Positions 14,285 to 51,338 are shown, counted from the stretch's first letter. The stretch: 64,000 nt of DNA from Candidatus Magasanikiibacteriota bacterium (GCA_041674805.1 JBAYVA010000003.1:91029-155028); one strand, 5' to 3'. Numbers and translations are program-made. Notes: generated by a model not told the origin, from the letters alone.

Positions 14285-14318
14285 ATCCGTATCATCCGGA
14301 TTATCCGTAAATCCGTAT
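14285..14318 (+). repeat. Copy A of the 34-bp ATCCG(T/G)A periodic element
   Basis: Sequence atccgtatc atccggatt atccgtaaa tccgtat: four 9-bp-phased units. Intergenic between the argS stop and the pyrD start. Confidence 0.7.
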
Positions 14319-14322
14319 TGTT

Positions 14323-16026
14323 TTACATTTCTGATACCACATCTATTGTAAGCAATCGAAGAGCCTTTGTCAAAACTTCTGAAACTTTGATACTCAAATA
14401 TAATCTGGATTTTATTAATTCTTCACTTTCAGCATTTAATACACTATGTTTGTTATAAAAATCATTATACATTTTGGCTAAGTCAAAACAATACTTGGCA
14501 ATAACAGATGAATTATAATTTTCTAATGATTTTGTAATAATTTCTGGAAAATCAGATACTTTCATTACTAAATTTTTTACTTCATCTTCTGTAAACAACG
14601 TGAAATCAGTATCATCATTTAATTTACCAGTAAATTTTTTTTGCAAACTATTGATACGAGCAACAGTATAGAGAATATATGGCGCACTAAAACCATCAAA
14701 ACTCACCGCTTCATCAAAATCAAAAGTTACCACTTTGTCAGCTTCGTGCTTTTGCATAGTGAACTTGAGAACTGCCATCGTCAAAACATGAACCGTCTCT
14801 TTTACTTTTTCTTCGCTCCAGTCTTCATGACGAGCTTTTGTTTCTTTTTGTAAATGTTCCAAAACTCTATCACGCAAATCTTCGTAAAGTATCACTCCAC
14901 CGTTACGAGAAGACATTTTCCCCCCATTTGGAGTATTAATTAAGCCATAACCAATATGCGTCATTTTTTTGTCAAAACCATTTAGTTCCAAAACTTTGTA
15001 AAGCTGTTTGAAATAAAAATCTTGTTCACTACCAGTAATATTGATACTTTCTTCTACATCGTAGCGTTTAAACTTCTCCTCTGATAAAGCTAAATCACTA
15101 GTCATATAAACACCGGCTCCAGTACTTTTGCGAAGCAAAGCAATATCCAAATTGTATTTATTTAAATCAGCAATAATAGCACCGCCTTCCCCTACTTCAG
15201 CAATTTTCTTGTCTAATAATTCATCAACCAATTTTTGTCCTGCAGTTTTCACTTCACTTTCGTAAATAATAGAATCATGTTCTACTTTCATTTCTTGCAT
15301 CAAATCAACAAAACCATCAGTACTCCATTTTCTGGTTTCCAAAAATAATTTAGTAATTTCGGCTTCTCCACTTTCCAATTTTTGTTGCATATCATCTAAC
15401 TCAGCCTTATACTCTTCATCATGTTCTTTCAAATAATTACTAGCTTTGACATAAATCTCACCAAGCATCTTTTGTTTATTTTGAGCATTATTAATCTCCG
15501 AACTCTGAACTCCGAACTCTGAACTATGTAAAATTCCCCACAAACATTTCACCACATGACGACCAAAGTCGTTGACGTAATTCATCGGGATAATATCATA
15601 ACCACTCGCACGATAAACTTGCACAATAGTATTGCCAATACAAACATTGCGAAAATGTCCAATATGAAATTCTTTGTGAGTATTTTGAGAAGGATATTCA
15701 ATCAAAACTTTTTTACCTTGACCAATATTATTGTTACCAAAATTTTCATTCACTTCTTCCAAAATTAATTTACTAACTTCAGCAGTATCTAAAAATAAAT
15801 TAACATAAGGACCAAAAGCTTTTATTTCTTTTATAATTGAGTCTGTTGGCACAGAAAAGTTTTCTACAAAATTCTTGGCAAATTCAGCTGGATTTTGTTT
15901 TTCTTTTTTGGCTAAGTCAAAACAAGGTAGAGCAATATCACCCATTTCAGCTTTTGGTGGAGTTGAAAATATAAGATTTTCTAATCCCAAAATTTCTTGG
16001 ATTTTTGTTTGTAAAATTTTATTCAT
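14323..16026 (-). CDS. argS: Arginine--tRNA ligase
   Basis: HIGH motif (HIGHFRNVCIGN), KMSSRNGG (KMSKS-like) and a DALR-type C-terminal domain. Confidence 0.9.
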   Translation of the reverse strand: MNKILQTKIQEILGLENLIFSTPPKAEMGDIALPCFDLAKKEKQNPAEFAKNFVENFSVPTDSIIKEIKAFGPYVNLFLDTAEVSKLILEEVNENFGNNNIGQGKKVLIEYPSQNTHKEFHIGHFRNVCIGNTIVQVYRASGYDIIPMNYVNDFGRHVVKCLWGILHSSEFGVQSSEINNAQNKQKMLGEIYVKASNYLKEHDEEYKAELDDMQQKLESGEAEITKLFLETRKWSTDGFVDLMQEMKVEHDSIIYESEVKTAGQKLVDELLDKKIAEVGEGGAIIADLNKYNLDIALLRKSTGAGVYMTSDLALSEEKFKRYDVEESINITGSEQDFYFKQLYKVLELNGFDKKMTHIGYGLINTPNGGKMSSRNGGVILYEDLRDRVLEHLQKETKARHEDWSEEKVKETVHVLTMAVLKFTMQKHEADKVVTFDFDEAVSFDGFSAPYILYTVARINSLQKKFTGKLNDDTDFTLFTEDEVKNLVMKVSDFPEIITKSLENYNSSVIAKYCFDLAKMYNDFYNKHSVLNAESEELIKSRLYLSIKVSEVLTKALRLLTIDVVSEM

Positions 16027-16031
16027 AAAAT

Positions 16032-49980: not shown

Positions 49981-49988
49981 TAAAAATA

Positions 49989-51284
49989 TTATTTTTTATC
50001 TGCAAAAATTTTTACAGTACCAAACACACCATCATATCCTGGTTTCACAAAAATATTCCCACTACGCACACGTGAAATTGCTTCAGCAATTTTTTCTCCA
50101 GGTACTTTTGCAATCTGCGAAAGATCAGCTTCAAGTAAAATAAAAAATTCATTATGAAAATTCTGTAATAATTTTTCGTAAGTTTCACTAACTTTTTTGG
50201 TATTTACACCGCAAGCAAAAACATCTGCCAAAATTTCTGCCAAAGGTACAATACTTTGGTAAGGAATTTTTCTTTTACCAGCATCACGGGCTTCTTCAAT
50301 ACTTCTATCCGCCAATTCATGTACTCTATTCTCTACTCCGATAATTAATTTTTTACCACACTTCGGACAAAGTCCTTTCAATTTTTTTGTTTCTTCTGGA
50401 GCACAAGAAAAATTGCAAGACATATGTCCATCATAATGATACTTTCCTTCTTCTGGAAAAAATTCTATCGTCGAAATAAATTTTTTTCTATCTTGTTCAT
50501 CAATAATTCTTTTTATTTCTGTATAAGTAATATCTTTTTCTGATTTAAAATAAAAAACATTAGCTTCCCTACCTAGTTTGGCATTACTATGCGCATCAGA
50601 ATTTGATATGAGCGTGATATTATCCAAACTTGACAACCTCCAGTTCATGAGTGGATCGCTCGACAGACCCGTCTCTATGGCCCGTACATAAGGTGTCAAT
50701 TCTTCAAACGCGTCTTGCAAAGAATCATAACCACCTTTGCTACCAAAAATACCAAACCACGGTGTCCAAGCATGCGCCGGAATCATCATCATGCGTTCAT
50801 CGGTCTCAAGCATGAGTTCCAAAATCTGTTTTGAAGTCAAACCCAAAATAGGACGACCATCAGATTTCAAATTGAAACCCATTTTATTCAATTTATTATT
50901 AAATTTTTCAGCCACTTCAATACTTGGTGCAAAAATAAGCAAATGAATTCTACGTGTTTTACCTTTGTGTTTTTTTATAGAAGCAATTTCCGTCCCAACT
51001 ATAAAGCGCGTCTTAGAGTCAACGTCATCACCTCTCCTATTAGGAGAGGTCGACTGGGACGACGCAGTCCCAGCGGGTGAGGTCTTTAATTTATAAACTC
51101 CTTCCGTATCCTCAACCAAACAATCTTTCATATGTTGGAACCACTTCGGATGCGTAAAATCTGAAGTAGATATAATATCTATTCCTTTGGTTTCACAAGT
51201 CTTTGCAATCAAAGGCAATTCTAAACTCTTCGAGCAAGCACGAGAATATTTTGAATGGATGTGCAAGTCAAGCACTTTTTTCAT
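49989..51284 (-). CDS. PHP-domain nuclease with a C-terminal zinc ribbon, endonuclease Q-like
   Basis: N-terminal DLHIHSKYS PHP motif. Further His/Asp motifs (AHAWTPWFG, NSDAHS). CNFSCAPE...CPKCGKK zinc ribbon. About 430 aa, like EndoQ. Contains an in-frame GC-rich palindromic insertion. Confidence 0.5.
   Translation of the reverse strand: MKKVLDLHIHSKYSRACSKSLELPLIAKTCETKGIDIISTSDFTHPKWFQHMKDCLVEDTEGVYKLKTSPAGTASSQSTSPNRRGDDVDSKTRFIVGTEIASIKKHKGKTRRIHLLIFAPSIEVAEKFNNKLNKMGFNLKSDGRPILGLTSKQILELMLETDERMMMIPAHAWTPWFGIFGSKGGYDSLQDAFEELTPYVRAIETGLSSDPLMNWRLSSLDNITLISNSDAHSNAKLGREANVFYFKSEKDITYTEIKRIIDEQDRKKFISTIEFFPEEGKYHYDGHMSCNFSCAPEETKKLKGLCPKCGKKLIIGVENRVHELADRSIEEARDAGKRKIPYQSIVPLAEILADVFACGVNTKKVSETYEKLLQNFHNEFFILLEADLSQIAKVPGEKIAEAISRVRSGNIFVKPGYDGVFGTVKIFADKK
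51021..51085. repeat. GC-rich palindromic element inserted in-frame in the EndoQ-like gene
   Basis: acctctcctattaggagaggt is a perfect 21-nt palindrome; tgggacgacgcagtccca is a second hairpin. Encodes a low-complexity loop SPAGTASSQSTSPNRRGDDVDSK. Confidence 0.6.
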
Positions 51285-51303
51285 AGCAAGTTATTAATAA
51301 AAC

Positions 51304-51338
51304 AATCCTGATTTTCGGATAATACGGATGATACGGAT
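51304..51338 (-). repeat. Copy C (reverse orientation) of the ATCCG(T/G)A periodic element
   Basis: Reverse complement reads ATCCGTATC ATCCGTATT ATCCGAAAA TCAGGATT. About 25-55 nt upstream of the EndoQ-like start. Confidence 0.65.

Follow-up and report, generated by a model that had tools for sequence, protein, structure and literature searches.

In a 64,000-nucleotide stretch of the genome of Candidatus Magasanikiibacteriota bacterium (GCA_041674805.1, JBAYVA010000003.1:91029-155028; hereafter, the window), a member of the Patescibacteria, or candidate phyla radiation (CPR), with a GC content of about 30%, we characterized an intergenic repeat that consists of four short, phased, directional boxes. 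This repeat is real and has not been described before: no prior description of such an element was found in the literature searched. Four arrays of about 34 bp each, denoted c1 to c4, are present in three loci of the window, all of them intergenic, upstream of pyrD, of valS (two arrays) and of a gene coding for an endonuclease Q (EndoQ) family protein. Elsewhere, the family occupies a range of non-orthologous junctions, mostly between co-directional genes. The bases that define the boxes are constrained and the complementarity of paired arrays is not; taken together with the location of the arrays within predicted transcription units, this suggests, with a probability of roughly 40%, that the element is a dispersed protein-binding array on double-stranded DNA that acts as a roadblock or gate for RNA polymerase.

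All four arrays were found in the window sequence where the original prediction had placed them (at 14285, in the region of 21361, at 21439 and in the region of 51304), and its assignment of the adjacent genes to pyrD, valS and the endonuclease Q family is correct; the gene that follows c4 shows 100% identity to an endonuclease Q family protein. Each array consists of four ATCnGnA boxes that follow one another head to tail in a 9-9-8 bp register and are succeeded by a conserved (T/G)TGTT tail, so that the proposed phasing of four boxes holds but the uniform 9-bp period does not. In c1 (14285-14325, plus strand), the boxes ATCCGTA, ATCCGGA, ATCCGTA and ATCCGTA start at 14285, 14294, 14303 and 14311, span 14285-14317 and are followed by the tail TTGTTTTA, within which the argS stop codon falls (14323-14325, minus strand). 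In c3 (21439-21478, plus strand), the boxes are ATCCGTA, ATCCGTA, ATCCGGA and ATCCGAA (starts at 21439, 21448, 21457 and 21465; span 21439-21471), with the tail TTGTTAA. The boxes of c4 (51298-51338, minus strand) are ATCCGTA, ATCCGTA, ATCCGAA and ATCAGGA (51332-51338, 51323-51329, 51314-51320 and 51306-51312; span 51306-51338), again followed by TTGTTTTA. These three arrays represent one arm type, A. The original description needs correction for the fourth box of c4, ATCAGGA, and for c2 (21353-21392, minus strand), which belongs to a distinct arm type, B (ATCCGGAAA ATTAGGATT ATCCGTAT ATCCGGA), with the boxes ATCCGGA, ATTAGGA, ATCCGTA and ATCCGGA (21386-21392, 21377-21383, 21368-21374 and 21360-21366; span 21360-21392) and the tail GTGTTAA.

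The c2 and c3 arrays form an inverted pair in which the box-1 ends face each other across a spacer (21393-21438) that is weakly conserved and variable in length among orthologues, about 46 bp in the window and about 24-26 bp in contig L114. The other two arrays are each paired with an array of a different kind. Head to head with c1 and pointing to pyrD lie three ATTYGTK boxes (14239-14265, minus strand; ATTTGTG, ATTCGTT and ATTCGTG, spaced by 9 and 11 bp), and a homologous partner of three such boxes (ATTTGTG, ATTCGTT and ATTTGTG) accompanies c4 (51359-51386, plus strand). The c1 and c4 loci thus have both arms in common but not the inter-arm spacer. With a further copy at 26560-26591 (minus strand), the ATTYG-box arrays make up a second multi-locus family, represented by 3 arrays in the window against 0.16 expected, two of which are those paired with the ATCCG arms c1 and c4.

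The arrays are far more frequent than expected by chance, as originally claimed. A two-unit pattern, ATCCGKATYATCCGKA, has 8 matches in the window at two or fewer mismatches compared to 0.04 expected, a count never reached in shuffled sequences, and all 13 ATCCGKA heptamers of the window fall within the four arrays, whereas 4.3 would be expected anywhere in it. Searching the window and 5.6 kb outside it with a profile of 26 distinct arms, which come from contigs with a GC content of 0.31-0.44, revealed no additional copies, not even weaker ones. The four-box 9-9-8 register is common to all 26 arms, including those from a second Magasanikbacteria lineage. The usual unit is an inverted pair with facing box-1 ends, a spacer of 18-46 bp and outward-pointing tails (TA/ACAMTCC...GGAKTGT/TA), which yields a module of 100-125 bp. 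Two arm types, A (ATCCGTATC ATCCGTATT ATCCGGAA ATCMGRA) and B (ATCCGGAAA ATCMGKATT ATCCGTAT ATCCGRA), recur across genomes and unrelated loci. At one locus (L100, 11488-11548), boxes 2 and 3 of one partner arm are intact but separated by a precisely placed GC-rich insertion of 19 nt, CCACCATAGGCGGACAGGT.

When 185,579 species representatives were scanned with the A-type pattern, 97 loci were retrieved, and the family was present in a single species, a Magasanikiibacteriota metagenome-assembled genome (MAG) with a complete element (L013). All the other loci are uniform (ATCCGNATT)n 9-bp repeats or unrelated repeats, which invalidates the wide spread that the scan seemed to indicate; the (ATCCGNATT)n matches lie mostly within long open reading frames (ORFs) of unrelated phyla, and we attribute them to the tandem nature of the search pattern. 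A more specific pattern identified 18 metagenome loci with a GC content of 0.31-0.44, and one contig with a GC content of 0.43 also belongs to Magasanikbacteria. Hence, the four copies in the window are not the only ones, confined to a segmental duplication, an outcome that would have undermined the original prediction: the family is found at a range of other junctions in other Magasanikbacteria. Separately, five contigs of a Planctomycetaceae MAG from termite gut (Ncb351_bin65; L030, L035, L040, L050 and L071) contain arrays of ATCCGTATTATCCG... followed by CGTTTAAAATTCCCCG, mostly near contig ends, which represent an unrelated dispersed repeat that probably causes the assembly to break.

In the window, c1 is located at the junction of two minus-strand genes, argS and pyrD, and the c2/c3 pair lies between the divergent valS and DHH genes. 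Elsewhere, the junctions include rpsG-fusA, rpsG with the gene that precedes it, groES-groEL, a class-II aminoacyl-tRNA synthetase-like (tRNA-synt_2 domain) gene-efp, ABC ATPase-MacB permease, and a MraY-like gene-ATE-like gene. As a rule, a module takes up all of the space between two co-directional genes. Modules are found in both orientations with respect to the genes, and single arms also occur in both orientations with respect to the next start codon (c4 compared to c1, L104 and L111). The ATG of valS (21339) is 20 nt past box 4 of c2, and that of the endonuclease Q gene (51284) is 21 nt past box 4 of c4. Start codons in the window are preceded by A-rich sequence without a Shine-Dalgarno motif (for example, 21340-21359, 51285-51305 and 21665-21684).

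Promoters, which throughout this work are predictions from sequence, closely resemble the sigma-70 consensus in the window genome, with 12 of 12 matching positions at 21573-21601 and likewise before the tRNA genes of contig L111 (2016-2044). The predicted pyrD promoter (14345-14373, minus strand; TTGACA-17-TACAAT, 11/12) lies within argS, in the last codons of its 3' end, and has the same sequence in the relatives L121 and L122, synonymous sites included; counted from the corresponding predicted start, at about 14338, the c1 tail is located at about +13 of the pyrD transcript. The predicted valS promoter (21489-21517, minus strand; TTGCCA-17-TAAACT, 9/12; TTGCAA-17-TAAACT in L103 and L114) lies just outside c3, which places both arms in a valS 5' untranslated region (UTR) of about 140-150 nt, with the A-type arm starting about 4-9 nt past the predicted transcription start at about 21482. 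Thus, c1 and c3 begin 4-13 nt past the respective predicted starts, and an arm in L111 lies 22 nt upstream of a perfect -35 element. The predicted promoter of the DHH gene (21573-21601, plus strand; TTGACA-17-TATAAT, 12/12), which is conserved in relatives, is downstream of c3, so that c3 is not a promoter-proximal site of that gene. The notion that the copies are promoter-proximal is accordingly only partly correct: c1 and c3 are just downstream of predicted promoters and in 5' UTRs, c2 and c4 lie 20-21 nt before start codons, and most of the copies elsewhere are between cistrons of operons.

Two broader hypotheses on promoters did not hold. A promoter reading into every element was found for c1 and c3 only, with weaker candidates at L116 and L100, and no promoter-like site reading into the operon-internal pairs was seen. 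An outward promoter within each arm, with a -10-like KATTAT in boxes 2-3, is unsupported: the corresponding -35 sequences are weak and AT-rich compared to the near-consensus genuine promoters. Between the valS and DHH promoters, a block, GGCAAGAAAATGCCTAGAGTTAGCCAAATA (21512-21545), that takes in the predicted valS -35 element and a small GGCA/TGCC stem is retained in all 7 genomes compared, including relatives at 65% identity.

Some invariant columns of the arms are partly fixed by the search pattern, and the case for constraint rests only on arms that were not selected with it. Among these, the core departs from ATC.G.A at 1 of 80 sites, compared to 13 of 32 at positions 4 and 6 (p=1e-7). 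Orthologous comparisons between the window and relatives gave the same picture, with core differences at 1 of 40 sites and differences at other positions in 8 of 26 (p=0.002). The inter-arm spacers, in contrast, are scrambled and change in length among copies. The pair upstream of valS is present in the window, L103 and L114, and by identity of the DHH protein the window is an outgroup (81-83%) to L103, L114, L121 and L122 (84-91% among themselves); therefore, this pair is ancestral and has been kept with its box cores intact.

Unlike the boxes, the pairing between arms shows no sign of selection. Within one element, the two arms agree at 28-34 of 38 positions, whereas agreement between arms of the same type from unrelated elements reaches 37 of 38; on average, arms are no more alike within an element (27.6 of 38) than between elements (28.7 of 38), and mismatches compatible with G-U pairing are rare. 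The c2/c3 pair folds better than shuffled sequences (-32.6 kcal/mol, z = -3.8, and -38.3 kcal/mol, z = -4.9), which is to be expected of an inverted repeat, and the sense RNAs of c1 and c4 are not significantly structured (z = -1.2 and +0.1, respectively). With no covariation, no excess of G-U pairs and no structure in the sense strand of single-arm loci, a conserved hairpin, whether in RNA or in DNA, was rejected. The occurrence of arms in either orientation, combined with the unstructured c1 and c4 sense RNAs, fits recognition of double-stranded DNA.

Contiguous head-to-tail boxes, fixed spacing and position-specific conservation, all of which the element possesses, are among the characteristics of a tandem-box operator array. 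The conclusion with the best support is that the boxes are read sequence-specifically; with orientation relative to the mRNA irrelevant and pairing unselected, the reader would most simply be a protein that binds double-stranded DNA cooperatively along the four-box arm. Under this model, the boxes would be the recognition sites of a single sequence-specific protein, with about four subunits per arm, as in the MetJ or omega-type repressors that assemble on contiguous short boxes. The module always lies within a transcription unit, either just past a predicted start (pyrD and valS) or in a gap between cistrons, with the following start codon only a few nucleotides away, and it is this position that suggests a roadblock or gate: the bound complex would hinder, or selectively admit, RNA polymerase and so tune the downstream gene. 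Copying is the probable means by which the module came to occupy its many sites.

Several observations weigh against a host-encoded roadblock. No candidate for the binding protein was detected in the window, where the only recognizable regulator is a TrmB homologue at the edge, and neither a transposase nor a regulator gene was found near the copies. The family is missing from 147 kb of close relatives, and a core host regulon should not vanish in this manner unless the binding protein itself is an accessory gene. Other arrays occupy the same junctions in the relatives, and these together with the more than 10 unit families of the window exceed what dedicated regulators could match in a genome of about 1 Mb, so that the arrays, as a class, may not be protein-binding sites. 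Many copies are located between tightly coupled genes (groES-groEL and rpsG-fusA), which is unusual for an operator. Furthermore, the spacer core AAAACGTTTT is common to the non-orthologous copies in L013, L101 and L102, and in L114 an arm switched type via three coordinated changes; both findings suggest copying or gene conversion, which can mimic purifying selection. Finally, all the promoters behind the roadblock are predicted ones.

The original prediction offered a regulator-binding array and a small repeat resembling repetitive extragenic palindromic (REP) sequences or miniature inverted-repeat transposable elements (MITEs) as candidates; both survive and are not fully distinguished by the evidence. 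The second, a serious rival that we nevertheless consider unlikely, holds that the element is a non-autonomous mobile element of the MITE, foldback, REP or enterobacterial repetitive intergenic consensus (ERIC) type, the arms of which are terminal inverted repeats composed of sub-repeats that bind a transposase or recombinase encoded elsewhere, so that the copies would be selfish passengers of permissive intergenic gaps, without a host function. Whole modules are indeed present at many non-orthologous junctions in either gene orientation, the A+C module is found twice in the window, and non-orthologous copies share the AAAACGTTTT spacer core. The arms of c2 and c3 (48 nt, 73% complementary) are inverted repeats of the kind expected of a MITE, and, like REP and ERIC sequences, the modules are imperfect palindromes in transcribed intergenic regions with many dispersed copies. 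As with ERIC and Correia elements, gaps within operons are filled up to the adjacent stop and start codons. The distribution is both wide and patchy: Magasanikbacteria lineages with a GC content of 0.31-0.44 carry the family, 147 kb of close relatives do not, and the A-type pattern was matched in 1 of the 185,579 species representatives.

However, the hairpin potential of REP and ERIC sequences is not a conserved property of this element. No consistent target-site duplication was apparent by eye at the flanks of 10 modules, where the palindrome instead extends into the flanks (TA/ACA...TGT/TA or TT). The window contains no transposase, and the rve-type transposase in L118 is not flanked by arms. 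No copy resides on a viral contig; with no viral contig matched, a phage origin was rejected as well. The corresponding junctions of relatives are occupied by other arrays rather than being empty sites. Orthologous copies retain intact box cores where the spacer has already been scrambled, whereas fixed neutral copies should decay evenly. Mobility and protein binding are not mutually exclusive, given that a copied module could carry sites that are used by the host.

Action at the RNA level appears improbable. According to this explanation, the element would form a long imperfect hairpin that affects mRNA stability, processing or termination, or else AUCnGnA repeats before the start codon would bind a translational regulator. 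In its favor, transcription is predicted for the sites of all copies, the fold of the c2/c3 pair is more stable than those of its shuffles, the arm adjoining the downstream gene always has the same orientation, 7-21 nt before the ATG, and the genes, as read from the sequence, appear to lack Shine-Dalgarno sequences. These features have to be set against the lack of any greater complementarity within than across elements, the lack of G-U enrichment among the mismatches, the unstructured c1 and c4 sense RNAs, and the occurrence of single arms in both orientations. There is, moreover, no match to any Rfam 15 family at the gathering threshold, the window yielding only RNase P RNA and two tRNAs, and no U-tract terminator other than weak consensus matches on the antisense strand.

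The ATCCG family is embedded in a more general architecture of intergenic DNA, of which it is the GC-rich member and the only one that recurs both at several loci and in different genomes. Arrays with a period of 7-11 bp and at least 2.8 copies number 15 in the 6.8 kb of intergenic sequence of the window (2.21 per kb) compared to 7 in 57 kb of genes (0.12 per kb), an 18-fold difference in density; shuffled intergenic sequence contains 0.5 such arrays on average. About 40% of the longer intergenic regions in the window consist of 3-4 tandem copies of 7-11-bp units (examples are found at 55727-55868, 57247-57298, 4462-4536, 24913-24950, 28263-28295, 22828-22857 and 10013-10039), and more than 10 different unit families are represented in the 64 kb. 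Several of these arrays are inverted pairs that fill gaps between co-directional genes, and some recur in other genomes. No ATCCG arm was detected in the 147 kb of close relatives, which comprise 66 kb around EndoQ homologues (94-69% identity) and 81 kb around DHH homologues (81-65%). Arms were thus seen in the window genome, the L103/L114 lineage, L013 and the L107 lineage but not in L118-L120, L121 and L122. At the same junctions, these relatives possess other short-unit arrays rather than empty sites: five TTTATARG units upstream of valS in L121 and L122, a TACGAAA palindrome between argS and pyrD in L121 and GTNNNAC units there in L122, and ATTTGNN boxes upstream of EndoQ in L118 and L119. 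Thus, the unit sequence depends on the locus and, at any one junction, changes between close relatives, while the architecture persists.

Such an abundance of different units, their intergenic enrichment and their turnover between close relatives could be taken to indicate that intergenic DNA grows by tandem duplication of 7-11-bp units through replication slippage and that the ATCCG arrays are one neutral outcome of this process. For the ATCCG family, this explanation is very improbable and largely refuted by the copies across loci and genomes, because slippage cannot place the same 9-9-8 array, with two arm types and a tail, at unrelated junctions and in lineages with a GC content of 0.31-0.44; in addition, the core is GC-rich in a 30% GC genome, and the constraint is position-specific. 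The remaining arrays, each specific to its locus, may still have arisen by slippage.

The original suggestion of a DnaA-box cluster, serving to titrate DnaA or to regulate genes through it, can be dismissed: although a unit with the preceding linker can read TTATCCGTA, a 7/9 match to TTATCCACA, and two opposed four-site arrays resemble the low-affinity arrays of Escherichia coli oriC, the element has an invariant G where the TTWTNCACA box (in its stringent form, TTATCCACA) has A7, the units, which read (N)(N)ATC[C/A/T]G[G/T/A/C]A, vary freely at the positions equivalent to C6 and C8, both conserved in DnaA boxes, the TT prefix coincides with the variable linker, TTWTNCACA sites occur at chance frequency in the window (15 compared to 16.8 expected; 0 within the arrays), there is no GC-skew switch (the skew is negative in 15 of 16 4-kb bins and weakly positive in one, and the cumulative skew falls almost monotonically), and the family is missing from close relatives although DnaA is universal. 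No dnaA gene is present among the annotated genes of the window. CsrA-type GGA sites, the rrn boxA (CUUUAACAA) and Rho YC repeats were dropped as well, the relevant bases being either not invariant or present in one copy only.

Among known systems, the element is closest in its array logic to MetJ or omega-type operators and in its genomic behavior to palindromes of the ERIC, REP or Correia type, and its arms are constructed in a manner similar to those of foldback elements. The 8-bp metboxes of MetJ and the 7-bp heptads of the omega repressor of pSM19035 are contiguous short-box operators of ribbon-helix-helix repressors. Like these, the element has from two to many gapless, head-to-tail short boxes in direct or inverted arrangement, with position-specific constraint and a register of less than one helical turn, such that bound subunits would spiral around the DNA; by analogy, this architecture implies cooperative binding. 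Unlike them, the boxes of the element are directional 7-mers in a 9-9-8 register without a known cognate protein, they do not cover the promoter but follow the transcription start or separate cistrons, and they are dispersed at many loci with a patchy distribution among close relatives. With ERIC sequences (also denoted intergenic repeat units, IRU), REP sequences and bacterial interspersed mosaic elements (BIME), Correia elements and bacterial MITEs, the element shares the form of an imperfect palindrome of 100-125 bp, dispersed and lineage-restricted copies, and transcribed intergenic sites, including those within operons, in either orientation. It differs from them in that each arm consists of four phased sub-repeats, inter-arm complementarity is not the conserved property, no target-site duplication, transposase or REP-associated tyrosine transposase (RAYT) was found, and relatives have replacement arrays rather than empty sites.

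Foldback elements of the Drosophila FB type have long inverted termini built of short tandem sub-repeats and thus resemble the element in their inverted arms of tandem short units and variable central spacer, but they are eukaryotic and much larger, and the element described here shows no evidence of mobility. Arrays of DnaA boxes share with it the 9-bp period, a partial sequence resemblance (TTATCC) and the presence of two opposed arrays; the element, however, has a conservation profile incompatible with TTWTNCACA, does not coincide with an origin or a skew switch and is not retained in relatives. The TIGR arrays of the TIGR-Tas RNA-guided systems of CPR bacteria and phages are likewise short-period arrays in CPR genomes that are poorly caught by repeat finders. 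Their 36-nt units contain two variable spacers of 9 nt, which separate box C/D-like repeats, and a tas gene lies next to the array (PMC12045711; bioRxiv 10.64898/2026.09.09.750476). We ruled out this identity, given boxes of 7 nt, units of 8-9 bp, linkers of 1-2 nt and no tas-like gene nearby.

Several other features of the window and related contigs deserve mention. Just downstream of the TrmB-family regulator gene (confirmed in L125, 5256-5990) is a palindrome of 11-bp AGAGATAAAAT units (63520-63622 in the window; L119, 1365-1476) that recurs at L101 7012-7036, L114 4519-4537 and L120 4863-4886; these palindromes may be an operator family of that regulator. Downstream of a pfkB-like gene, an imperfect CTAATAT/TATTAG palindrome (1056-1203 in the window; L013, 405-436; L120, 19864-19979) is 97-100% identical over 32-35 nt although protein identity between the genomes is only about 69%, an unusual degree of conservation for a non-coding element. 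An unlisted 47-aa ORF at 49784-49927 (plus strand), preceded by GGAG, encodes very basic K/A/P repeats (MPTKKPATKKKVAKKPAKKTVKKAVKK...) similar to a histone H1 tail and is a candidate nucleoid-associated protein. Between valS and tyrS, a 370-aa protein with only a HATPase_c domain (17491-18603, minus strand) is encoded in the window, L001 and L124 but missing at the same position in L121, L122 and L123. Next to the c4 locus, a 240-aa ORF (51416-52138) matches only the C-terminal half of citrate synthase; it is a conserved gene, not a pseudogene, and belongs to an ATP-citrate-lyase-like cluster (51416-52138 and 52242-55726 in the window; L119, 6408-9845) of ATP-grasp/citrate-binding, CoA-ligase and citrate-synthase-like genes.

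CPR bacteria cannot be grown alone and have very few recognizable regulators, and, to our knowledge, their cis-regulatory DNA is almost uncharted. The element described here is sharply specified by its boxes, register, two arm types and tail and is therefore usable as a search model for MAGs, as bait in pull-down or DNA affinity purification sequencing (DAP-seq) experiments, and as a reference point in metatranscriptomes. Binding of a host protein to the boxes would imply that genes for translation, chaperones and nucleotide metabolism belong to one regulon in a reduced genome; if, instead, the element is a mobile repeat, it would be the first characterized MITE-like family in this group and a marker of strain history. 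A more far-reaching and distinctly speculative generalization is that Magasanikbacteria use short phased box arrays within transcription units as a general means of gene control, with the ATCCG module as the platform of an oligomeric protein that gates RNA polymerase in core-gene operons (fusA, rpsG, groEL, efp, valS and pyrD) and the locus-specific arrays as variations. Should this be the case, it would amount to a regulatory architecture that has not been described in any bacterium, in a lineage in which regulation is essentially uncharted. The general construction of intergenic DNA from box arrays in this lineage may outweigh the single ATCCG family in importance and is the more surprising lead.

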